This document shows, in pieces, positions 1,413 through 17,102 of a stretch of 20,000 nucleotides of DNA. The stretch lies in the IMG/VR virus record IMGVR_UViG_3300027847_001767, one strand, 5' to 3'. The DNA comes from an uncultured virus (IMG/VR IMGVR_UViG_3300027847_001767). Lineage: Duplodnaviria > Heunggongvirae > Uroviricota > Caudoviricetes. The notes under the pieces were generated by a model, which saw only the letters and a list, made by a program, of their open reading frames with translations, was not told the origin of the DNA and searched no databases. A program made the position numbers and the translations under genes. Positions within the stretch are counted from its first letter, which is position 1; the number at the start of each line of letters is the position of its first letter.

Positions 1413-4400
1413 TCTTATTTACATAATTTTTTTTTCTCTTCATTTAACCTAGCAAGTCAGAATGACTTCTATCTAGATAGTAATTCGGAGAGGGTCTACT
1501 TGACTGTAGGCCCTTTATTTTCTTCGGCTACTATTGGAAAATTAAAATGTGAATTCTCTGAATATTTCTTATTTTCCTTCAAGAATGGCTTTATATACGA
1601 TACTCTCTTTGAGTCAAGCATTGACAATGGATTGTACGTCAAAGTCAAAATATCCCCCAAAAATGGGCTGGACTTTATAAAAAAATATGAGTCCAGCCTT
1701 ATTTATGCCCAACCCGACTTTATATGTCCTGTTTTCCACAACGATCTTTTGTGGCCCAAACAATTCCAACTAAATAATACAGGCCAATATATCGATGGTC
1801 AAAAAATAACTGCTGGCTTAGATGTAAATGTCCAATCTGTATGGAATACCTATACCGGAACTGGTATCAAGGTTTCTGTGATAGATGACGGTATTGAAGA
1901 CCATGAAGACCTACCCACTATCTTCAATAGTTATGCACCCGCAGACGGTGGAACTGGAGAACCTCAAGATGTAGGTAAGCGTGGTAGACATGGCATGGCC
2001 GTAGCTGGTATCATTTCAGCATTACACAATGATTTAGGAATTAGGGGCGTAGCTCCTTCTGCTATGTTGATTGGTGTAAACATCTTTAAGAGAGGGACAA
2101 GTATCTCTGACTATGCAGATGCTTTTATGTGGTCTATGAACCAAGGAGCAGATGTAATTAACTGTAGTTGGGGCTTCAAATACGAAGCGGTTGATATAAT
2201 AAGTGAGAATCCACGTCAATTTAACTTAATAGCTGGTGCTCAATGTGATGATGTATTCCCTGCTTTAACTTCAACAATCAATCATGTAGCTACTGCTGGT
2301 AGGAATGGCAGAGGTTGTGTATTGGTTTTTTCTGCTGGCAATTGGGCGCAAACAGGTCCATTGGGTCAAAATTCTATTGAGTGTGTGACTTATCCTGCAA
2401 ATCTAGCAAGTGTTATATCTGTAGGCGCCATAACACCTCAAGGGCAAAGAAGTATATATTCTAACTACGGACCTAAGTTAGATGTAGTAGCACCTTCTAA
2501 CGATTTGAATTTCTCGGGATCGAAAAGTTTCTTTGGTGTAAGGACTATTGATAGGGAGGGAACTGCGGGTTATGCGTCAGGAAACTATACCGCTAGATTC
2601 GGTGGAACGTCTGCTTCTGCTCCTGTTGTGTCTGGGGCTGCTGCCTTGATCTTAAATGCTGACCCTGGATTAAGTGCTTCCCAAGTCAAAGATTTGCTCT
2701 TAGGAACGACTACAGACGTTTTAACTGCTGGATTTGATATAGAGTCAGGGTATGGCTTGATTGATATTCAAGCAGCTATAGATGCTATAGGCACTACTGT
2801 AACAAGGTCTGCCCCTTGTGATCTTTTGGGTGGTGATGCCGATAATGACGGAATATGTTTGAATAGTGATTGTAACGACAACGATGCATCGTATCCCAGA
2901 ATACCAGGAACGCCTTGTGATGATGGAGATCCTTCAACAAGTAATGACGAAATAAGTATTGATGGTTGTTCTTGTGCTGGTGTAGCTATCCCTTGTTATC
3001 CATTTGCAGATGTGGATGGAGATGGTAGGTGTTCCAATAACGATTGTAACGACAATGACGCTGCTTTACCTGCTGCTCCTGGTACTTTATGTAATGATGG
3101 AGATTTAAGCACCCTTAGCGATACAATTACTACAGATAGTTGTACATGTGTTGGTATACCTATACCAGATGATTGTGCAACTTGTTGCGCTACTAATAAT
3201 TGTAATTGTACTTTTTATGTTCAAGATGTATCTACTTGTTTAGATACAGCAAGATTAACAGTGATAGGTGGTTGTTTTTCACCAACTACCTTGTCTTATA
3301 GATGGTCAACTGGAGATACTACAGAATCAACAGTTAGTGTTCCTGGACTGTATATTGTAACAATAACAGACTTGGCGGATTCGTGTGTAAGTGTGGCTAC
3401 GGGGCAAATACTTGGTGCTGATCAGCCAGAGGTATCTATAATTTATTCCAATATAACTTGTGCTGATGCTTCTTTGAATCTAACTTCTAGGTATGGGACG
3501 CCACCATATACCTATCAATGGAGTGGTGGGCAAAATTGGGATAATGATTGTAATCTTGACCTACAATGTAATTATTTGGTATATACTGAAGGTATATACG
3601 CTGTCACTGTAACTGACGCGAGTGGGTGCACTGACTCAACCTCTATAGATATTGATTTTATTGATTCTATTTTAACCGTCACTCTGACCGCTGTAAACGA
3701 CGAGGAGTGTACGGTTTTTGATGAAAGTTCGATTAGTGCTAGTGCTACGGGCGAAGCTCCTTTCTCTTATTTATGGACCAATTCAGCAACCAGCCAAATG
3801 ATAGGCTTCTTAGCTCCTGGGAATTATGGGGTGACTGTAACGGATGCAAATGGGTGTATTGGAACAGATACAATAAGTGTAGCTTTAAATGAAGGATCTT
3901 GTGATGCTCCTTGTGATTTTGGAATTATAGGAGATGTTGATGATTGCGATGGTGATATTACTATTACCGAAATCACACCATCTGGGGGTGTAACTTATAT
4001 ATGGAATGATTTGGTTACAACCCAAAACAGAACAGGCCTGGCACCTGGTCAATATAGTGTACAGGCTACAGACTCGTTGGGATGTAATGCTATGTTGGTT
4101 TTGGAGGTAGAAGATTGTTGTCCTGTTGAAATTTGTTGTAATTATATAGATGACGATGGAGATGGGTTGGTAGATTGCTATGATTTGGATTGTGCGTGTT
4201 CTGAGGCTACTGCTGCTGTTTCTGTAGAAAATAGTTCTAATGTTCCTACTTCTGGCAATGCGATAGGAGCTGTAGATGGCTTAACCGCAATATTCTCAGG
4301 ATCGGGATTTGCTGTTTATAAGTTTACGGCTAGTGTTAGTGGGGTAGCCAGATTATTTATAACCGATGAGGTTGGAACAGGACCTTACTCTATGCAAGTA

Positions 4401-7400
4401 AGCCAATCAAATGATAACATATCTTATTCAAATAATACTTTTTATACCGATGCAGATGTAAAGCCTTGGGCGTTTCCTATAGTTAGTAACATGGACTATA
4501 TAAGAGTTCATAACTTATCTGGAGTTGGACAAGGGTTCGAATTAGATGCAATCTTAGTGGGTGTATGTGGTGATGATTTCCCTTGTATGGGAATTGAAAA
4601 TACATGCCCATTACCAAATACGGTTGCGTGTGGAACTTTAATCGAAGATATTTTAGGGACAGATGGAAGTGTTTGTTATGTGTGTGAAGGAGTAGGAACT
4701 ATGTGTGTTTTAGGCGAAGAATGTATTGGTGGAACGTGTAGTGTTAATAATCCTTGTGCTCCTTTAAATGTTGGAGATGCTTGTAATGATGGCAACCCTT
4801 GTACCGAAAACACTACTATCAACTCTTTTTGCTTATGTACTGGAGGAAACGAAATAGCAAATGATTGTCAAGATCCTACTACTGTAGATTGTGGGGTAGC
4901 TTTAACTTCTATCTCTGGATGCTTTACTTGTGTTGGAGTAGGAACGAAGTGTGTTTCTGGAACTTGCACGAGTGAATGCTGTACAAACTTAACGGATGCA
5001 GGAGAGATAGCTGGAGAAGAAAGCAGTTGTTCGTTGTTTGATCCTTCCGAGATTACTGATTCTGTTGCTCCAAGCGGAGGATTAGGTGGAACAATAGAAT
5101 ATCAATGGCTTGAAGATGGACTTGTGGTTTCTGGAGCTACAACAAGTTCTTATAACCCACCCGTTATTTTTAGTACAAAATGGTATATAAGACAATCTAG
5201 AAGGGATTGCCAGATGGCATGGATTTCTACAGATACTATTTTTAAGTACGTAAATACTCCACCTACTACTATAATAACCGGAGATCAGTTTACATGCGCT
5301 TATGATTCAACCCAAATAACCGCTTCTGGTGGTGTTTCTTATGTTTGGAGTGATGGAGAGACAACTGCTTCTGCTTACTTGCTTCCTGGGTCTTATACAG
5401 TCACAACAACAGATGTAAATGGATGTACGGATGTAGAGTCTGTAAGTATTAGTGATTTGGGAGAACCTACAGCAAATATTACCGCAAGTGGTACTTCTAT
5501 ATGTGATGAACAAACTGTGAACCTGTCTTCTGATTTCGCTACTTCATATAATTGGTCAACTGGATCTACTGCTTCTAATATCGATGTGGGGCCTGGAACC
5601 TATACTTTGACTGTTACGGATGAAAATGGCTGTACCTCTACGGATTCTCAAGTAGTGAGTTCGTTGGGATCTTGTTGTCCTTTGGTTCTTAATCAAATAA
5701 ATGGTGGTTTTAGCATTATATCATGCAGTCCATACCAAGCAAGCATTCCTTTGTCATGGAATGCTACGACCCCTAATTATTATGTGTACTATAGAAAAAA
5801 CGGAGGAGCATTGATATTGAGCGGTGGCGCTCAGTCTGCTACATCAAAGAATGTGTCTGTAACTAGCCCTGGATCATTCTCAAGCGATTATTATGATTTT
5901 TATATAGTGGATAATGTAACTTCTGGTGGTGGGTGTAGCTCTAATATTGTTAGAGTTTGGGTTACGTGTAATTCTTGTACACCAATAACGTTGTCAGTAA
6001 ATCCATCTTTAGTTAATGGGTGTTCTATTCCAATAACAACTGTTACATTTAGCTGGACCGCAACCACACCTACATATCATCTCTGGTTTGGGGTTGGAAA
6101 TCCAGCTAGCAACTTCCAAGATTTCACAACTACAACAAACAACTCAATAGATAGAGGGTATGCATTGCCTGGTGATGCTCAATTTTATATAATTGATGGA
6201 GATGGGTGCCAATCGAATACTGTAACAATTGATGGATACTGTGAACAAGCAGAGAATTGCAATTTAGTGGGCGATGAAGATGGAGATGGCTTTGCTGATT
6301 GTTTAGATTCTGATTGTGTTCCAAATGCTAATGCAGGGCCAAACGTTAGTATATGTTCTGGTGATCAGACAACATTAACAGCAACGGGTGGTGCTTCATA
6401 TACATGGAATCAAGGGTTGGGATCGGGTGCCTCTAAGATTGTTAGCCCTACTGTAACAACAATTTATACTGTAACAGTTACAGCAAATAATGGATTTGCT
6501 TGTACTGCTACAGATCAAGTGACCGTAACGGTAACATCATGTGGGTGTGATCCTGCGGTTGGAACGCCTTGTTCGGATGGTAATGCGTGTACTATAAATG
6601 ATGTGATACAATTAAATTGTATTTGTGCTGGAACAACTATTACAAATGATTGCCCAGCAGCAAATACAGTGGCGTGTGGGGACGCTCTGGTTTCTCCTTC
6701 TGGATGCTTTACTTGTGCCGGAACAGGAACAATGTGTAGCTCAGGCGAAACATGTAGTGGTGGGGTGTGTACTGTTGATCCAAGTTGTCCGGCTTTATTA
6801 GATCCAGGTGGTGTAATTATAGTAAATTCTACATGTCCGTTTGGTGGAAGCCCAAGTGGAGGTTCCATTTCTCCCCCTAGTGGTGGTTGTAATGCTGGCT
6901 CTACACTTCAATACCATGCTGGCGGTGGTTGGTCTTCTACTTTACCTATATATGATCAAGATGGTCCGGCTCAATTAATACAGACTAGATGTAGATGTGA
7001 TTTGAATGGCACTACAGGAACAGTAAGTAATAAATCAACTACTCCAGCTACTTGCTCTGGATGTCCTGACTTATCTGCGGTTGCTCCTCCTATAGTTGTA
7101 GTAAATAGTTCTTGTCCTGGCGGTTCTCCTACTGGCGGTTCATGGGCAATGCCTGTTGCTTCTTGTCCTTCTGGTAGCACACTCCAAAGAAAAAGATCTA
7201 CAAGTGGAACATGGTCTTCGTCTACTTCGCCTATATCTTATCTTTTAAATTCTTCTCAGACATGGCAGACTAGGTGTGTATGTAGTTCTAATCCTTCATT
7301 TACAAGTCCTATTTCGAGCACAACAAGTGTTCCTGCAGTAACACCAAATGCGACTATAAGCCCATATGCAGGGCAAACAACGACTTGTGATGATCTTGTG

Positions 7401-7883
7401 CAATTGATAAGTAGTGCAAATAATGTAACTATAGATGATTATCTATGGTCTACAAGCGCAACGAGTCAAGCTATTAATGTATTGGCAGGATCGTATACAG
7501 TAACAATTACAAGTACTTTAGGGTGTGAAGGAATTGATAATCAAGTTATAAGTGAGGTGTGCGAATTAGGTATTACATCTGTAGTTAGGGGTGGGCAACC
7601 CGATATATGGGGAGCAGGGAATGATAATCTTTACTTTTTTGTAAGACATACTGCAGGATGTATTTCTAGTGGGCCAGGCTTATTGACAGAATACCGAATA
7701 AATAACGGCAATTGGATGTTTAGCTCAAATATTGGTGAAGGAGTTTTAATTTCTCCAGGTTCTTTAGGACATTATGTAAATTTAATTTCAAGTCCAGGCG
7801 ATGATATAGATGTAAGATGGACCCTTAGTCATTCTGATGGGTGCTCAGTTCAATATACCTATAATGATATAATTGCACAATGA
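1402..7883 (+). CDS. Giant exported S8 (subtilisin/kexin-like) serine protease with Cys-rich, SprB-like and Ig/PKD-like repeats; signal peptide separated from the body by a frameshift at T9 (1427-1435)
   Basis: Intact triad: VSVIDDG (Asp 1884), RHGMAVAG (His 1989), FSAGN oxyanion, GGTSASAP (Ser 2610). Repeats include GTPCDDG..., Y.W..G...GxYxVTVTDxxGC and DDDGDGLVDC. The main ORF has no ATG near its start; ATG 1402 plus a -1 shift gives MLRSLIYIIFFFSSFNLASQ. Confidence 0.85.
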
Positions 7884-10800
7884 GAATATTAATCTTTTGT
7901 TTGTTATCGATTCCATTGTTATCACAAGAGTTAACGGTTGATTGTGTATTCGAATCTCCAGACTCGATTACAACTGTGGTAAGTGGAGGGATAGCACCTT
8001 ATTCTTATATGTGGTCAGATTCAGACACAACAGAACATAGAGGCAATTTGAGTGCCGGTACATATATCGTAACTGTAGTAGATGCTACCAATTGTTATAA
8101 TGTGTGTGGGGTAGATATACCTGGTGCTCCTTGTAATATTATAATCGAAGAGACTATAGCAAAAGATACGTGTGGTAACAGTTTAGGATCAATAGACCTA
8201 AATGTAAGCGGTGGTTCAGCTTCTTATTCTTTCTTTTGGAATACAGGCGATACAATAGAAGATATTTTTAATATCCCTGCTGGATCATATACGGTACAGG
8301 TTATCGATAGTATGTATAATGCTTGTGATACCACGAAAACAATTGTAGTTCCAGATACCAGTATTACTATTTTAATCCCTTTTGTAGTCACCGAATCAGA
8401 TTGTGACAACGGAGATATAGATATTAGCCCTACTCCAGTGAGAGATGATTACAGCTTTGTATGGTCTAATGGCTTCTTAGGAGAGGATCTTATTGATGTA
8501 GGCGAAGGGTTTTATGAGGTAGATGTTTCGTATGGGACCTGTTTAGCTGATACTATTATAGAGATGACTGCAGATACAGTATTTGATGTCAGTTGTATAA
8601 TAGTTACCCCAAATACTATTTCTGTTACCCCTATAGATGGAACAGAACCAGTTACTTACTTATGGTCGGATGCAAATACAGAACAAACCAGAGACAGTTT
8701 AGTACCAGGATTATACCAAGTAACAGCTACAGATGCCGATGGATGTGTAGCAGAATGCGAGATACTATTACTAGGTTCTGATACTTGTTTTAATAGACAA
8801 CCCGTAATCAACCTTACTTTCGACCAGAACTGTTTAAATGATACGATAACGATTACAGCAAGCCCAGATACAGGTGCTTATGTTCCTGCTTGGAGCTCAA
8901 CTTCTACAATCCAGGGAGATACAAATTTGTGGTCGATTAAAATACTAAGTACTGCAGAAGAACAAATAGAGGCTACCCTCACTCTATCAGACGATACATG
9001 TTCATTCTTTTATAACATTGTTTTTGGTTCTATAAATTGTTGCGCTTGTGTACTTACGGATATAGATACAACCTTATGCTATGGTGACTCTATTGCTATG
9101 GCATTAGATACTACAAGCTGTTTAGGTCCATTAACCTATGCATGGTCTAATGGTGACACGGTTGAAAATCCTATGGTTTATATGGGTGGAAATTATGAAT
9201 TGACTTTAACAGATGCCGATGGTTGTTCTACGGTAGGGTATTATAAGGTTCAAACCCTAATAGCTCCTATTGTAAACATCGAAGGCGCTTTAAGCCTCTG
9301 TAACGGACAAACAAGTATGCTAACAGCTATTGGTGAGGTAGATTCGGTGTTATGGTCTACAGGCGACACGGTGGCCTCTATAACAATAGATACGGCAGGA
9401 ACTTATACTGTGACTAGCTATGGTGCTGGTTGTAATTCAATTGCTTCAGTAGACGTTACATTTTTTAGTGACAATTCTATTGATTTGGGAGTAGATACAA
9501 CTAATTGCGACCAAGTATTACTAGATCCAGGTTATTCGGGAACTTACTTATGGTCTACAGGTGCTATAAATAATAAAATTATAGTCAATCAAACAGGGCT
9601 TTATAAGGTTACAATAACAGATATAAATGGTTGTGAGGCGGTTGATAGTATCAATGTGACTATTAATATGCATCCTTACTTTGGGATAGTAAGTTCTAGT
9701 TCTTGTGATTCTACAGTTTTAAGTACAGGGCAAGTTGGAGATCATGCATGGTCTACGGGTGATTCTACAAGCACCACTACTGTATTGTCTTCAGGTTTTT
9801 ATGATGTGACAGTAACGGATGCGAATGCATGTACGAGGGTTCAAACAATAGATGTAACAATTTATGATACCGATATTTTAAGCCTACCAGACACTATACT
9901 TGCTTGTTCTGGGGAAGAGGTTACAATAAATACAGGTCTTTCTAGTGAGTTTGAGTTTTATTGGTTTAGGCATCCTCTAGGATTCTTTGGTCCTAATCTT
10001 GGTAGTGATTCATTCTTTGTAACAAGTGGGTTGAATGACGAAACGATAAGGGCGGGGGTTATAGATACAAATGGGTGCATAAAAATACATGATGTAGTTA
10101 TCGATCGATCTATTCCAGATGTTCAGTTGTTTGCTTTTGAAGACTTTAATGGTGATGGTAGAAGGAATTCTGCTACTCAGAGCTATTGCTTAGACACAAC
10201 TTATACAGATGTAGGGTTAGAAGGGGTTTTATTTGAAGTATATAATGTAGATGGAAGTTTGAGATCGTATGGGAATACAGATTCTAATGGATTTTATACT
10301 CCTTCACTTGAAGAAGGTTTTTATACCATGAGGGTTTATTCCGGAATATATGAGATCTCTCCTCAAAACAAAGGGGTAGATACAATAGATAGTGATTTTC
10401 CTATAACAGAAACATATAGTGAGATACCATTTGTTTTGGTTGGTTGTGATGCTGCAATAAGGTATGACGTAGGATTATATGAAAAAGCTACAATAAGTGA
10501 TTATGTATGGTTGGATGTAGATGAAGACGGTATTCAGGATATAGGAGAGAGTGGAGAGGGGCTTGTAGAAATAGAACTTATAGGTGAAGCTCAGACAAAT
10601 TCTGATGTATTTGGAGCATATGCTTTTGTTGTAGACCCTGGGCAGTATGAAATAAGAATAGATTTAAGTGGATACTTGGCCTCTCCGATGGATCAAGGCG
10701 CAGATGATGAATTAGACTCAGATATTATGAATGGTGGAGAAACAGAGCAGTTCTGGGCTTTGAGTGGAGAAAGCCTTACTTGTTGGGACTTTGGGCTTAT

Positions 10801-11395
10801 AGAAGATTGTGGGTGTGTTATAGATACTTTCTATCAATCAGCGCCTTGTGAGTTTGCGTGGGAGGTGACAGGGAATAATTGTAGGGCAGAAATTAGAAAC
10901 TCTTTCAATGAAGTGGTTAGTGTAGCTGATAAAAATGGATTGTATACTATTTATGTTTATAATGGGTCTAAGTTGTGTGAATCAGATACAGCAACAATAA
11001 GCGGATGTATAACTTATGATATATGCTGGGAGAAAGTTATAATTGGCGATCTAGATTCTGGAGAAACATTTACAATTCGGTGGAATTTGATAAATGATAA
11101 GCCTTATGATGCTACAGGTGTTGGGTTTGGTTTTGATTACAATGGTTCTCAAACATATATAAGCAGTAGTCCTACAGCATCAAACCATAGAACTAATTTT
11201 GGTAGGTGGGGCGGTATTGGTGGCGGTTTTATTGGTTGGGAGAATCAAACAATACCTGCAAATAATACGTTAACTTTGGAGGCAGATTTATCGCAAGACG
11301 ATAACGATAATAGTTTGATTCGTGGGTTTTATCTATCTTCGGACAAACCAATTGTTGTTGAATCGGGCGGCAGTTGCCAAAGTTCAGGTTTTTGA
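7880..11395 (+). CDS. Large exported adhesin-like protein: SprB/PKD-like repeats, two SdrD B-like domains, C-terminal DUF11-like domain
   Basis: Signal peptide MRILIFCLLSIPLLS-Q and ATGA overlap with the upstream gene. Repeated YxWSxG...GxYxVTxTDxxGC. ISDYVWLDVDEDGIQDIGE and DQGADDELDSD are SdrD-B-like; GETFTIRWNLIN...DATGV is DUF11-like. Confidence 0.8.
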   Translation: MRILIFCLLSIPLLSQELTVDCVFESPDSITTVVSGGIAPYSYMWSDSDTTEHRGNLSAGTYIVTVVDATNCYNVCGVDIPGAPCNIIIEETIAKDTCGNSLGSIDLNVSGGSASYSFFWNTGDTIEDIFNIPAGSYTVQVIDSMYNACDTTKTIVVPDTSITILIPFVVTESDCDNGDIDISPTPVRDDYSFVWSNGFLGEDLIDVGEGFYEVDVSYGTCLADTIIEMTADTVFDVSCIIVTPNTISVTPIDGTEPVTYLWSDANTEQTRDSLVPGLYQVTATDADGCVAECEILLLGSDTCFNRQPVINLTFDQNCLNDTITITASPDTGAYVPAWSSTSTIQGDTNLWSIKILSTAEEQIEATLTLSDDTCSFFYNIVFGSINCCACVLTDIDTTLCYGDSIAMALDTTSCLGPLTYAWSNGDTVENPMVYMGGNYELTLTDADGCSTVGYYKVQTLIAPIVNIEGALSLCNGQTSMLTAIGEVDSVLWSTGDTVASITIDTAGTYTVTSYGAGCNSIASVDVTFFSDNSIDLGVDTTNCDQVLLDPGYSGTYLWSTGAINNKIIVNQTGLYKVTITDINGCEAVDSINVTINMHPYFGIVSSSSCDSTVLSTGQVGDHAWSTGDSTSTTTVLSSGFYDVTVTDANACTRVQTIDVTIYDTDILSLPDTILACSGEEVTINTGLSSEFEFYWFRHPLGFFGPNLGSDSFFVTSGLNDETIRAGVIDTNGCIKIHDVVIDRSIPDVQLFAFEDFNGDGRRNSATQSYCLDTTYTDVGLEGVLFEVYNVDGSLRSYGNTDSNGFYTPSLEEGFYTMRVYSGIYEISPQNKGVDTIDSDFPITETYSEIPFVLVGCDAAIRYDVGLYEKATISDYVWLDVDEDGIQDIGESGEGLVEIELIGEAQTNSDVFGAYAFVVDPGQYEIRIDLSGYLASPMDQGADDELDSDIMNGGETEQFWALSGESLTCWDFGLIEDCGCVIDTFYQSAPCEFAWEVTGNNCRAEIRNSFNEVVSVADKNGLYTIYVYNGSKLCESDTATISGCITYDICWEKVIIGDLDSGETFTIRWNLINDKPYDATGVGFGFDYNGSQTYISSSPTASNHRTNFGRWGGIGGGFIGWENQTIPANNTLTLEADLSQDDNDNSLIRGFYLSSDKPIVVESGGSCQSSGF

Positions 11396-14213: not shown

Positions 14214-14789
14214 ATGTTGAGAATACCAGAGCAAAGAGCAACCCACCCCTTAGATTGGGACATAGCACTAGACTTGATGGAAAGAATAAAGGACCCGATG
14301 GAAAGTCTTCAGATACACATAGGATGTTACACAGCTTTAAGGGTAGGTGATATTCTATCTTTGAAGTGGGAAGACATTTATGATGTCGATAAGATTAATC
14401 TGATCGAGCATAAAACCAAAAATCTGAGAAGGATGGATGTTCACCATAAACTTAAAGAGGTTATTGAATGGGCTTATATCTCTTGTAACCGTCCACACTT
14501 TGATTTACATGTCTTTAGATCTATTAAGAAAAGAGATCAACCAATTACTGTCAAGGCCTATAATGACAGGTTGAAAAAGATATTCGCCAAGTATAGAATA
14601 GAGCATCCCTCAAATGCATCTCATACATTAAGGAAAACATGGAGCCAAAGGGTATGGGAATTTCACGGCAAAACAGACGAGGCTTTAATACTTGTTTCAG
14701 ATATGTTAGGACACGCTAACATTTCAACCACCAGAAGATACATTGGGATTCAAGGGAAGATTGTTAAACACACATACCTATCCATATGA
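14214..14789 (+). CDS. Tyrosine recombinase, catalytic domain only (191 aa)
   Basis: R (ALRVGD), K (EHKTK), HxxR (SHTLRK), H (LGH) and Y (RRYIG) are all present. Confidence 0.93.
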   Translation: MLRIPEQRATHPLDWDIALDLMERIKDPMESLQIHIGCYTALRVGDILSLKWEDIYDVDKINLIEHKTKNLRRMDVHHKLKEVIEWAYISCNRPHFDLHVFRSIKKRDQPITVKAYNDRLKKIFAKYRIEHPSNASHTLRKTWSQRVWEFHGKTDEALILVSDMLGHANISTTRRYIGIQGKIVKHTYLSI

Positions 14790-15121
14790 ATATTGAGGCA
14801 ATTAAAAAGGCGGCATTTATGCTGAATGTTGTGGGCAATGAGTCTAGAATCGATCTAATTAATATTCTGATTGATTGCGTAGAAATGCCAGTATGGCAAT
14901 TACAAATACTAACTAACTTAGAGCAAACAACATGCTCAAGACACTTGGCTTTATTAAGAAGAGTAAAATGTGTTAAAACACGGCGTAAAGGGAAAGAGAT
15001 TTATTACCGATTAAATAGAGTAAGGCTTCACGAAATAATAGTTTTCGCAAAAAAAATATCATATGATAAGAATAGGAATAGACCCTGGAACCAAAACAGG
15101 AGTAGGTATTTACGATCTTGA
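14786..15121 (+). CDS. ArsR/SmtB-family HTH transcriptional regulator
   Basis: R..LI..L....V.QL....LEQ...SRHL..LRR...V.TRR.GK.IYY; ATGA-coupled to the recombinase. Confidence 0.88.
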   Translation: MNIEAIKKAAFMLNVVGNESRIDLINILIDCVEMPVWQLQILTNLEQTTCSRHLALLRRVKCVKTRRKGKEIYYRLNRVRLHEIIVFAKKISYDKNRNRPWNQNRSRYLRS

Positions 15122-15488
15122 ATTAAAAAAATTGGTTCTAGTGGAAACCATGAGAGCGCATCAATTACATATCCTTTTACATGGTAGTTATAAGGTGTGG
15201 GGGAAATTAGAATTAGTTGTGTTCGAAGATGCTAGAATGGCGACCTACCGAAGAAAGCTAGAGTATCACAAAGCTCAAGGTGCTGGATCTATAAAAAGAG
15301 ACTGTACAATTATTGAGGAGATATGTGTTAGCAACAATTTGCCGTACAAGAAGACCAGGCCCAGGAAAGAATCAAATCAAATGTTGAGCGGTCCCAAAGG
15401 ATCTGAGTTTTTTAATAAAAATTACGGTTGGGAAAAAAGAACCAGCCACCATGCCAGAATTGGCGCATATCTAGCGATGTATGGATGA
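15063..15488 (+). CDS. RuvC-like Holliday junction resolvase (RNase H fold)
   Basis: N-terminal IGIDPG, VVFED and C-terminal TSHHAR. Confidence 0.7.
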   Translation: MIRIGIDPGTKTGVGIYDLELKKLVLVETMRAHQLHILLHGSYKVWGKLELVVFEDARMATYRRKLEYHKAQGAGSIKRDCTIIEEICVSNNLPYKKTRPRKESNQMLSGPKGSEFFNKNYGWEKRTSHHARIGAYLAMYG

Positions 15489-15936
15489 AAAGTTATGGCG
15501 TAAGTTTTCGGCCTACATTCGATTAAGAGATACAGACCACAATTATGAAGGAAAATGTTGCACTTGTGGGACTACAGTTGATTCTACTGACGCAGACGCA
15601 GGGCATTACATACCAGTAGGAGTTTCGAACCTACTTAAATTCTTGGAATGCAATGTTCATATACAGTGTAAGAAGTGTAACCAATTAGAATACGGAAGAG
15701 AAGAAGAGTATAAAGAGTTTATGATTCAGATGTATGATGAAAAATTGGTTGAAATCTTAGAGGGCTTAAAACATAAGATGGGGAAGTTTGATATTGATTT
15801 TTACAATAAAGGCATCACCCATTATTCTGCAGCTAATAAGATCTTAGTTAGATTAAAAACACAAGACATTAGAACACCTGAATATTTGTACGATTACAAT
15901 CAATCTATTTTAAGTTTAAAACCATACATATTATGA
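15481..15936 (+). CDS. ninG: NinG/Rap-family recombination endonuclease
   Basis: FSAYIRLRD, CCTCG, DAGHY and NVHIQCKKCN (HNH-like Zn sites). Confidence 0.85.
   Translation: MDEKLWRKFSAYIRLRDTDHNYEGKCCTCGTTVDSTDADAGHYIPVGVSNLLKFLECNVHIQCKKCNQLEYGREEEYKEFMIQMYDEKLVEILEGLKHKMGKFDIDFYNKGITHYSAANKILVRLKTQDIRTPEYLYDYNQSILSLKPYIL
15916..15936 (+). repeat. 21-bp direct repeat, left copy (TTAAAACCATACATATTATGA)
   Basis: Identical to 16420-16440; contains the ninG stop and the next gene's ATG. Confidence 0.95.
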
Positions 15937-16253
15937 AAGTTAAAATTAACGAACTAAGACAACTTTTTACTGAAAAATCATGCGATAATTCGCATTGGAT
16001 AATTGGTAAAAATTACCTTATCCGCACCGTCACAATGATTCAAGTCGGTAAGCTGGAAAAAATAACAGCTAATGAAATTGTATTATCAAATGCAAGTTGG
16101 ATTGCAGATACCGGAAGATTTGCCGAGTCATTATTAACAGGACAATTTAGCGAAGTTGAGTTATTTAATCCCAAATTCCCCTGCATTATTGGTCGAGGTG
16201 CATTGGTGGACGCTCAAATATTTGATTATAAATTACCTAACGCAACAAAATGA
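15933..16253 (+). CDS. DUF6948-like small phage protein, 106 aa
   Basis: IGKNYLIRTVT..VGKL....EIVL..ASWIADTGRF matches my recollection of this family; ATGA-coupled at both ends. Confidence 0.7.
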   Translation: MKVKINELRQLFTEKSCDNSHWIIGKNYLIRTVTMIQVGKLEKITANEIVLSNASWIADTGRFAESLLTGQFSEVELFNPKFPCIIGRGALVDAQIFDYKLPNATK

Positions 16254-16414
16254 ACGCAACAATATTAAGAATTGGCCATGATCGGTCGAGGTCGAAGTCG
16301 TGGTCGGGGTCGTGGTCGGGGTCGAGGTCGAGGTCGGGGTTGGGGTCGTGGTCGAGGTCGAGGTCGAAGTTGTGGTCGAAGTCGTGGTCGAAGTCGGGGT
16401 TGGGGTTTAATTAA
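16250..16414 (+). CDS. Uncalled 54-aa Ser-X dipeptide-repeat peptide MNATILRIGHDRSRSKSWSGSWSGSRSRSGLGSWSRSRSKLWSKSWSKSGLGFN
   Basis: ATG 16250 overlaps the upstream stop (ATGA); TAA 16412-16414 ends just before the right direct repeat. Confidence 0.75.
   Translation: MNATILRIGHDRSRSKSWSGSWSGSRSRSGLGSWSRSRSKLWSKSWSKSGLGFN
16286..16405 (+). repeat. 20 degenerate hexamers T(C/T)G-(AGG/AAG/TGG/GGG)
   Basis: 17 TCG and 3 TTG units; the TTG units at 16340, 16370 and 16400 are exactly 30 nt apart. Confidence 0.95.
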
Positions 16415-16419
16415 ACAAA

Positions 16420-16440
16420 TTAAAACCATACATATTATGA
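16420..16440 (+). repeat. 21-bp direct repeat, right copy
   Basis: Identical to 15916-15936; contains the amidase ATG at 16437. Confidence 0.95.
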
Positions 16441-17102
16441 GAGCTATTAGTGTTGACAAAGTTAATTTTCCTTCAAATCAGTATTTCCACACCATTTATC
16501 CTAAAAAGCAAATAGTTATACATCATACTGCGTCTGGCAAGGGTGCTAGTGGCGACATAGCATGGTGGAAAAGAGATGCCTTAGAAGTTGCTACCCCTTA
16601 CATTATAGAGAGGTCAGGAATAATTAAACAATTGTATGATCCTGGTAAATGGGCGTATCACTTGGGAACAAAGAATAAAACTTTAATGCGATTCAATATT
16701 CCTGTAAAAGATGGAAGGATATGGCATCGAACAAGGCTTCACCAAAGAAGTATTGGGATAGAGCTAGATAGTTGGGGGTTTCTAACTAAAAGAAATAGCG
16801 GGTATTATTCGTGGACAGGCAAAAAGGTAGATAACATTGTTCCTTATGAGAATGGATTTAGAGGAGAAAGCTATTTTGAAGCGTATACCGACGAAGCGAT
16901 TAAAGCCTTAGAGGAGTTGTTGCTTTTCTTATCAGTGGCATACAAAATACCCCTTTCTTATAATTACGAAGATCAATTTGAACTGTCGTATAAGGCATTG
17001 GTTGGCGAGCCAGGTCTTTACTCGCACGCATCATACCGAGAAGATAAGTGGGATTGCCACCCACAGCCTGAATTAATTCAAATGTTAAAATCACTAAAAT
17101 GA
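16437..17102 (+). CDS. N-acetylmuramoyl-L-alanine amidase (Amidase_2), probable endolysin, 221 aa
   Basis: IVIHHTA, AYHLG, SIGIEL and SH..YREDKWDCHP zinc-amidase motifs. Start moved to ATG 16437 (A-rich leader). Confidence 0.9.
   Translation: MRAISVDKVNFPSNQYFHTIYPKKQIVIHHTASGKGASGDIAWWKRDALEVATPYIIERSGIIKQLYDPGKWAYHLGTKNKTLMRFNIPVKDGRIWHRTRLHQRSIGIELDSWGFLTKRNSGYYSWTGKKVDNIVPYENGFRGESYFEAYTDEAIKALEELLLFLSVAYKIPLSYNYEDQFELSYKALVGEPGLYSHASYREDKWDCHPQPELIQMLKSLK

Follow-up and report, generated by a model that had tools for sequence, protein, structure and literature searches.

The 20,000-nucleotide stretch analysed here (the window) is one strand of the IMG/VR record IMGVR_UViG_3300027847_001767, an uncultured virus of the Caudoviricetes, and contains a segment of two small genes between a gene for a NinG/Rap-like endonuclease and one for an N-acetylmuramoyl-L-alanine amidase (Table 1). 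The first of the two is an open reading frame (ORF) of 106 codons, termed ORF106, and the second encodes a peptide in which serine alternates with other residues, termed the Ser-X peptide. The evidence supports the view that this segment represents the insertion of a promoterless two-gene unit into the stop/start junction of NinG and the amidase, and it is the duplication of 21 bases around the start of the next gene that leaves both neighbours working. We consider it probable that the segment is an insertion scar generated by recombinase-free recombination with a variable target duplication, the products of which were filtered by selection.

The most direct evidence is the repeat that flanks the segment. 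The 21-mer TTAAAACCATACATATTATGA is found exactly at 15916-15936 and 16420-16440, corresponding to a spacing of 504 bp from start to start, and a scan of both strands of the window that allowed up to three mismatches identified no copy besides these two. A first-pass annotation, made from the letters alone, had described perfect 21-bp repeats that enclose a 504-bp cassette of two genes, and every one of its coordinates was correct. Beyond the 21-mer, similarity continues over another 6 bases with 4 matches, giving 25 of 27 in total. The NinG protein ends in ...SLKPYIL*, of which the last six codons and the stop (LKPYIL*) fall within the left copy, so that the reported content of the repeat, namely the NinG C-terminus, an initiation region and an ATG, was borne out by both sequence and translation. 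The TGA of NinG overlaps the ATG of ORF106, and the TGA of ORF106 in turn overlaps the ATG of the peptide gene. In-silico deletion of 15937-16440 generates ...TTATGA|GAGCT..., in which the NinG stop overlaps the amidase start ATG AGA GCT; the claim that removal of the insert and one repeat leaves NinG intact and ATGA-coupled to the amidase can thus be read directly from the sequence. The right copy carries the last codons of NinG in a non-coding position, which implies that the junction was duplicated and predates the insert.

Table 1. Features in and around the two-gene segment (positions in the window).
Feature	Position	Strand	Remarks
Tyrosine-recombinase-like gene	14214-14789	+	191 aa, catalytic domain only; Phage_integrase E 2.6e-16; 1.1 kb upstream of insert
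NinG/Rap-like endonuclease gene	15481..15936	+	Pfam NinG E 2.3e-21; PHROG 171, 5034
Repeat copy 1	15916..15936	+	NinG C-terminus and stop, A/T-rich initiation region, ATG(A) now serving ORF106 (ATG 15933-15935)
ORF106	15933..16253	+	106 codons, small acidic protein; large unnamed phage family; no Pfam or PHROG match
Ser-X peptide gene	16250..16414	+	54 aa; leader MNATILRIGHD, then Ser alternating with Arg/Lys/Trp/Gly/Leu; ATG overlaps ORF106 stop (ATGA)
Hexamer array GGTCGN x19.5	16284..16400	+	Tandem Repeats Finder; reads TCG-NGG in peptide frame; hypervariable core of peptide gene
Spacer ACAAA	16415..16419	+	5 nt, right edge of inserted DNA, between peptide stop and repeat copy 2
Repeat copy 2	16420..16440	+	NinG last codons out of context, non-coding up to amidase ATG(A) at 16437
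N-acetylmuramoyl-L-alanine amidase (Amidase_2) gene	16437..17102	+	downstream target; Pfam E 1.1e-10

Two A/T-rich inverted repeats were also observed in this region: one at 15907-15946, with 11-nt arms 18 nt apart, encloses repeat copy 1, and another at 16403-16427, with 10-nt arms, spans the peptide stop and repeat copy 2.

No transposase was found in the insert, in which neither ORF106 nor the peptide matched a Pfam or PHROG family, nor were terminal inverted repeats found at its ends or promoter-like or terminator-like sites on the + strand between the repeats (15937-16419). The absence of a transposase noted in the first pass therefore holds for the insert, but a tyrosine-recombinase-like gene does occur upstream (Table 1). 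This enzyme is a weak candidate for the agent: the 21-mer would then be an attachment core on which it acts in the manner of integrons or integrative cassettes, and direct repeats that flank an insert do look like attL and attR. However, the repeats at other loci (see below) are unrelated in sequence and length, an integrase was found in just 1 of 150 flanking ORFs elsewhere, and the 21-mer, as read from its sequence, has a dyad of only 4 bp and no attC-like structure, so that site-specific recombination appears highly improbable.

Duplications of this kind recur around the same two-gene module in other phages. For modules with enough flank, the 112 bases that surround the ORF106 start were aligned without gaps (+1/-2) to 170 bases spanning the end of the last peptide gene, with a threshold score of 14. 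In the first set, 12 of 74 modules reached this score, or 9 of 71 without three tandemly duplicated modules (L041, L034, and L035). A replication set was assembled with a different query alignment, and loci that exceeded 90% identity with one another or with any of the first set were removed (76 loci, 63 kept); here 8 of 43 modules scored at least 14, and 7 of 43 after one array-on-array match was dropped. The identical test applied to other ORFs of at least 60 codons gave 22 of 1313 (1.7%; Fisher p 1.2e-5 versus 9/71). Flanking duplications are thus about eight times commoner at the module than at other ORFs, and the recurrence that the first-pass annotation had anticipated at related loci was found in both sets. 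About 85% of the modules carry no repeat. As a second control, the module start region was compared with the starts of other genes at the same loci, and 9 of 499 comparisons reached 14, eight of which came from duplicated modules or arrays. These data bear on the possibility that there was no insertion at all and that the repeat arose by chance or is a regulatory motif shared by gene starts. The A/T-rich initiation regions of one genome do resemble each other, but unrelated starts reached the threshold in a single comparison once duplicated modules and arrays are set aside, and two or more copies of the 21-mer were seen in none of 200 dinucleotide-preserving shuffles of a sequence that holds no third copy. 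The shuffles and the start-region comparisons refute this explanation, to which we attach next to no credence.

Among the sixteen repeat-flanked modules the repeats are unrelated in sequence and range from 14 to 42 bp in length. In the window, and in L039 (27/27), L122 (30/33), L040 (20/21), L109 (33/40), L081 (20/23), and L036 (20/23), the duplication covers the initiation region and ends at or just past the ATG. It lies in the spacer, upstream of two different ribosome-binding sites, in L137 (21/21), L154 (27/30, a hairpin), L098 (19/19), and L158 (14/14), whereas in L121 (18/18) and L178 (24/24) it extends over the beginning of the next gene, namely its start codon and the codons that follow. 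A leader ORF of 16 codons is opened by the left copy in L121 and terminates in ATGA at the start of ORF106. Relative to the peptide stop, the start of the right copy falls between -20 and +41 nt, and the distance from the end of the left copy to the ORF106 ATG is 0 to about 30 nt.

These features can be accommodated by a mechanism in which a promoterless coupled module would have recombined into the overlapping stop/start junction of NinG and the amidase through two joints staggered by 21 bp, causing the duplication of the recipient junction. The left copy would then keep the C-terminus and stop of NinG and supply an initiation region and ATG to ORF106, and the right copy would let the amidase keep its own initiation region. 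The joints may have formed by illegitimate or microhomology-mediated recombination, or by a template switch out and back, during phage replication, and the 4/6 match just beyond the 21-mer may be a microhomology that was used; no enzyme encoded by the cassette would be needed. Selection would remove those products that truncate NinG or leave either gene without a start. Where the NinG stop and the amidase start overlap, duplication of the junction is the only outcome that leaves NinG complete and provides starts for both ORF106 and the amidase, and selection for this outcome would account for the exact boundary at the ATGA. Once in place, the repeats could permit the precise, scarless loss of the insert by short-homology recombination or slippage. 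That the duplications vary in sequence, length, and position is the pattern expected of staggered non-specific joints combined with selection; together with the lack of an enzyme, inverted repeats, promoter, or terminator, this variation argues against a process resembling that of a transposase or integrase, or one that reads start codons.

The last of these processes was in essence what had been proposed in the first pass, namely a promoterless cassette that borrows the initiation signal of its neighbour. The insertion, the duplicated junction, and the borrowed initiation region all stand, but a dedicated targeting of start codons is not supported, because the duplication varies in length, sequence, and position. 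A cassette that itself seeks translation starts, possibly aided by the Sm-like protein that ORF106 is predicted to encode (see below) or by its own G-rich hexamer array provoking template switches, would explain the enrichment of flanking duplications at the module, the start codon that most duplications include or abut, the tight edges of the unit, and the presence of the module in hundreds of otherwise unrelated phages. Four of the duplications, however, lie in the spacer, clear of both initiation regions, the ends of the unit have neither sequence nor structure in common, no gene for a nuclease, recombinase, or reverse transcriptase is present in the insert, and the large majority of modules have no repeat. 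Moreover, gene junctions are nearly the sole tolerated sites in packed phage genomes, so that selection alone predicts a bias towards starts. A start-seeking cassette is therefore considered quite unlikely.

Several observations weigh against the reading of the segment as a scar of staggered joints and selection. Tight edges of the unit are seen in all cases, and this is the main point that the staggered-joint reading leaves unexplained: it is not obvious that random illegitimate joints would produce such narrow limits, so that an intermediate with defined ends, such as a mini-circle, is still conceivable. The control set includes spurious ORFs, and its rate of 1.7% consequently understates that for real genes. 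A second Ser-X array is present to the left in L002 (42/42), L143, L178, and L106, and these cases may be partial tandem duplications rather than insertions. The repeat in the window, at 21 bp, and several of those elsewhere are short in relation to the cut-off of >30 bp that is given, in the accessible text of their paper, by the authors who described insertion with long target duplication (PMC2853133). An empty NinG-amidase junction, the allele expected by the first-pass annotation, was found neither in the viral or metagenome collections nor in the contigs of the sequencing runs, so that the insertion is deduced from its scar alone. The amidase of the window had no relative in the viral contigs and one, 26% identical, in the metagenome contigs, while the relatives of NinG in the contig collections were 36-40% identical and not syntenic. 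The deletion joint from 15936 to 16441 was absent from the contigs of four runs, which were examined as assembled contigs and thus in a form that loses rare variants. There was also no excess of NinG contigs without ORF106, as NinG was found on 9 contigs and ORF106 on 8 in exact form and on 1 as a variant.

The tight edges would fit another route, in which the module and one copy of the repeat leave as a mini-circle and re-enter the same junction in a Campbell-type event, the 21-mer serving as the linker in a PeSL-like shuffling of genes. Such a route needs a substrate of the kind present here, two perfect copies of a 21-bp repeat with a spacing of 504 bp, and the duplicated piece in L154 is, as mentioned above, a hairpin. 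Other small genes in these phages are occasionally flanked by similar duplications; in L001 (5900-7010), three small genes in succession are flanked by repeats of about 43 bases, each made up of an ATG, a ribosome-binding site, and a promoter-like TTGACA...TAAAGT, in an arrangement that resembles the PeSL-type regulatory cassettes of T4-like phages. Such cassettes of T4-type phages are reportedly also the subject of Comeau et al. 2014 (PMC4122927). PeSL circles have been shown experimentally in phi1/RB49, according to the accessible text of PMC2839356. However, the 21-mer occurs just twice in the window and at no other gene start, it has neither promoter nor stem-loop, and its exact sequence had no match in 2.9 million viral contigs, which speaks against a shared linker. 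In addition, the route cannot create the first duplication, and no 504-bp circle or circle joint, nor a deletion joint, was found in the assembled contigs of the runs. Taken together, linker-mediated shuffling appears unlikely. A further repeat was observed in L039, a phage of 61% G+C, where the 20-base A/T-rich sequence GATCAGTTATAATAAAGATA (with mismatches) precedes two neighbouring genes upstream of the module (2485 and 2861) and may be a promoter.

The contigs provide some information on the filled form. In the source run the whole stretch is contained in one contig. Both flanks are covered in run X5 by contigs identical to the window, with none on 15841-16430 and none that bridges this interval, a pattern that speaks neither for nor against an empty allele. 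The filled form is crossed at its left (15631-15951) and right (16408-16965) junctions by contigs of two independent runs, X6 and X7. The ninth contig carries a one-residue variant of ORF106 together with a one-residue variant of the amidase, which shows that the insert is common to slightly diverged strains. Searches for an empty site were extended to the downstream genes of two other modules: that of L039 matched only its own contig, and that of L137 had 20 relatives at 41-54% identity, none of which had the module within 2.5 kb. These relatives also share no upstream genes with L137 and are thus not a true empty site. The conclusion of the first pass that perfect identity of the repeats implies a recent insertion or ongoing excision is not supported, since 21 bp date the event only loosely, and there is no evidence either way as to whether the insertion is recent or the module still moves. 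The suggestion that the insert modulates amidase translation found no support either, as no RNA structure beyond that of shuffled sequences was detected (z +0.55).

The Sm-like protein and the Ser-X peptide form a widespread, translationally coupled module that is found among many unrelated uncultured phages. Of 111 sequences examined (110 loci plus the window), 106 contained the core motif of the ORF106 family, and in 93 of these a Ser-X ORF starts at most 250 nt downstream. A second, non-redundant set gave a Ser-X gene after the ORF106 homologue in 48 of 54 cases. In 30 of 57 loci the stop of ORF106 and the ATG of the peptide gene overlap, and some phages possess duplicated modules or a series of consecutive peptide genes. 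At the DNA level the loci resemble each other mostly within the module, and the named families among the flanking ORFs at other loci (150 scanned of 166 listed) vary from locus to locus. Ten of these 150 ORFs had their best match in DNA/RNA metabolism, and elsewhere the module sits among small early-region genes. A role in lysis, as the neighbouring amidase might suggest, was rejected because none of the 150 matched a lysis family, and the amidase next to the module in the window is accordingly incidental. The most likely role, put forward with low confidence, is an early nucleic-acid-directed or conflict-related one, for which a predicted Sm-like ring and a basic, aromatic, disordered partner would be suited. 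A literature search found no published account of the Sm-like and Ser-X module or of such scars in phages.

ORF106 has 682 relatives in a large protein collection, and all 120 that were listed are unnamed and have no Pfam domain. The closest other ORF106 among the matches listed is just 60% identical, indicating that the donor is unsampled. Only one of 50,697 deposited phage records, that of an uncultured virus, contained a relative, whose end is overlapped by four bases by a 43-codon coding sequence. Of the candidate stretches retrieved by two profile-guided scans of viral contigs, 268 of 272 and 385 of 396, respectively, were confirmed as ORF106 relatives, and another 24 loci came from genome bins of many phyla, all of them metagenome-assembled. 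In the Sm/LSm fold, an N-terminal helix precedes an antiparallel sheet of five strands that is strongly bent. ORF106 gave a confident AlphaFold model (pLDDT 89.3, pTM 0.76) with a helix at residues 5-12, six strands, and an extra helix at 60-69, and nearly all of its listed Foldseek matches in the PDB are Sm/LSm chains, although the similarity is weak (best E 1.7e-3, none reaching E<=0.001, TMq <=0.54). ORF106 is thus predicted to be an Sm/LSm-like beta-barrel. The first-pass label of a DUF6948-like protein can refer only to a weak resemblance of the modelled fold: among the viral models of BFVD, proteins with a DUF6948 domain appeared at ranks 6, 22, and 32, with a similarity close to that of the Sm/LSm chains (best E 3.5e-3, TMq 0.58), and an Atlas feature match to DUF6948 was obtained at rank 27 (score 0.86), but none of 28 members of the ORF106 family matched the Pfam profile PF22253 (DUF6948) at E<=1. 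To judge from these models, the label denotes a likeness of fold and not family membership. A search for literature on 'DUF6948' found none.

The peptide gene consists of a leader conserved across loci (consensus MNAAxLRxGxD) and the hexamer array. In the window all frames of the array are open on both strands, and the reading frame therefore needs a separate argument, which is provided by the serine codons. Across loci these are TCG (1031), TCT (570), AGC (360), TCA (247), AGT (122), and TCC (24), yet within an array the codon is uniform, with a median share of the commonest codon of 100% (78 loci). Since TCN and AGY codons differ from each other in both of their first two bases, conservation is confined to the Ser-X frame, which is invariably in phase with the leader; Arg-Gly and antisense Pro-Arg frames were rejected as the selected frame for the same reasons. 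The second codon is NGG in 2034 of 2354 array hexamers, and its first base is distributed almost evenly (T 717, G 668, C 509, and A 460). NGG codons encode Trp, Gly, and Arg, and the X residue is mostly one of these three. Gly is encoded by GGG in 95% of array codons as compared to 21% in the neighbouring ORF106 genes, and this preference holds even in phages of 28-35% G+C; Arg is encoded by AGG or CGG in 95% of array codons as compared to 26% in the ORF106 genes alongside. No codon family other than NGG includes Trp, and beyond this we cannot explain the restriction. A diversity-generating retroelement as the source of the NGG pattern was rejected, as Ser codons that contain adenine (AGT, AGC, and TCA) are uniform within arrays; no reverse transcriptase was found near the array.

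The array is a hypervariable coding microsatellite. In the near-identical phages L004 and L005, all 16 differences in 4639 aligned bases fall inside it, and in other near-identical pairs it accounts for 52 of 62 (L057/L091), 29 of 35 (L020/L023), and 2 of 3 differences (L057/L067). These differences are gains and losses of units and changes at the N of NGG. Many viral contigs end inside the array, indicating that assemblies break there. The exact 54-aa peptide was absent from a collection of 15 billion proteins in which its exact neighbours were found on 8-9 contigs, and it appears that gene callers skip the peptide or that it varies between contigs. A more far-reaching possibility, to which we give little weight, is that the module is a selfish recombinase-free cassette which moves with defined ends, by a mini-circle or by template switching provoked by the array, lands at junctions, and duplicates tens of target bases, so that each insertion would be harmless and reversible; the array would then be a fast-changing contingency locus in conflicts between phage and host or between phages.

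The tyrosine-recombinase-like gene sits in a replication/recombination block and is followed by a RuvC-like resolvase gene (15063-15488) and then NinG. The closest named relative of the amidase is the annotated amidase of Tenacibaculum phage PTm1 (42% identical), which likewise adjoins exonuclease and replication genes. The runs that hold contigs matching the window are marine, and the A/T-rich start region without a Shine-Dalgarno match is taken by us to fit a Bacteroidota host; the phage is a marine one that probably infects Flavobacteriia. A blastn search of the window against the 50,697 phage records returned no match. In the window, the Arg-Gly frame runs open through the array and continues in phase into the amidase gene, so that initiation at an ATG at 16278 (16278-17102, + strand) would produce an amidase of 274 aa extended at its N-terminus by 53 residues of (Gly-Arg)n. 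An array frame is also open into the downstream gene in L039 but not in L002, and this continuity is probably due to chance. Further upstream, two giant ORFs of 2127 and 1171 aa (1500-11395, + strand) contain many degenerate internal repeats rich in Asp, Gly, and Cys codons (families D2-D8), and the first of them matches the protease family phrog_3677 (E 5e-48). A 21-base unit is present three times in tandem at 1338-1399, at the end of an ORF at 900-1412.

Although phage genomes are mosaic in structure, the joints by which small accessory genes enter packed phage operons are rarely caught, and in this locus they can be read base by base. The same type of scar surrounds one widespread module in two independent sets of phages, and the picture offered is that of staggered joints that duplicate a stop/start junction, with survivors that keep both neighbours translatable. 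The locus marks the Sm-like and Ser-X pair as a frequently gained accessory, and since its array changes far faster than the surrounding DNA, the pair is a candidate conflict locus. What is new is the recurrence of flanking duplications around this module. The locus itself looks like a known kind of event, a recombination scar, and not, on present evidence, like a new class of mobile element or a new jumping gene.

None of the three hallmarks of transposons and insertion sequences, namely a transposase, terminal inverted repeats, and a target duplication of fixed length, is present, and those of integrons, a recombination site conserved in sequence or structure and an integrase always linked to it, are likewise absent, as repeats are unrelated between loci and integrases are rare beside the module. 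Early proteins of Tevenvirinae with an LSm-like fold (GoF, MotB.1, and Frd.2; PMC12152347) are, in the portion of that paper available, similar to ORF106, which is also small and predicted to form an Sm/LSm barrel like that of eukaryotic and archaeal Sm proteins. These early phage proteins are suspected of acting on RNA, but no repeat-peptide partner is mentioned for them in that portion, and the likeness is one of predicted fold. Morons (Hendrix et al. 2000, as cited in the accessible part of PMC2839356) are accessory units added between resident phage genes, probably by illegitimate recombination, and resemble the present unit in this respect. They carry their own promoter and terminator, whereas the unit in the window has neither and relies on the host operon and a borrowed initiation region. 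In the PeSL cassettes and mini-circles of T4-type phages (Arbiol et al. 2010; PMC2839356), small accessory genes are also bracketed by a repeated regulatory sequence, recombination between repeats can delete or move a gene, and the same part of the text names no dedicated recombinase. The PeSL sequence, however, is a conserved promoter with a terminator hairpin that occurs many times per genome, unlike the unique translation-initiation junction that is repeated in the window.

A close parallel is found in insertion with long target duplication, a class described for restriction-modification gene complexes of bacterial chromosomes by Furuta, Abe and Kobayashi 2010 (PMC2853133). As far as the accessible text of that paper goes, its members have no mobility gene, a long and variable duplication, and a recombinase-free mechanism that has not been solved. 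As in the present case, the insert lacks a transposase or integrase, the repeats differ in length and sequence from event to event, and they often overlap the 3' end of a neighbouring gene. Inserts of that class are flanked by a direct duplication of a unique target that is single-copy at the empty site of a relative, and the NinG codons in repeat copy 2 suggest a duplication of this kind in the window. That class concerns bacterial chromosomes and defence genes, whereas the scars reported here are found in phage genomes and around one recurrent small module, so that the range of insertion with target duplication now takes in phage operons in addition to bacterial defence islands. Moreover, in contrast to what is set out in that text, the duplicated piece here serves as the initiation region for two genes.

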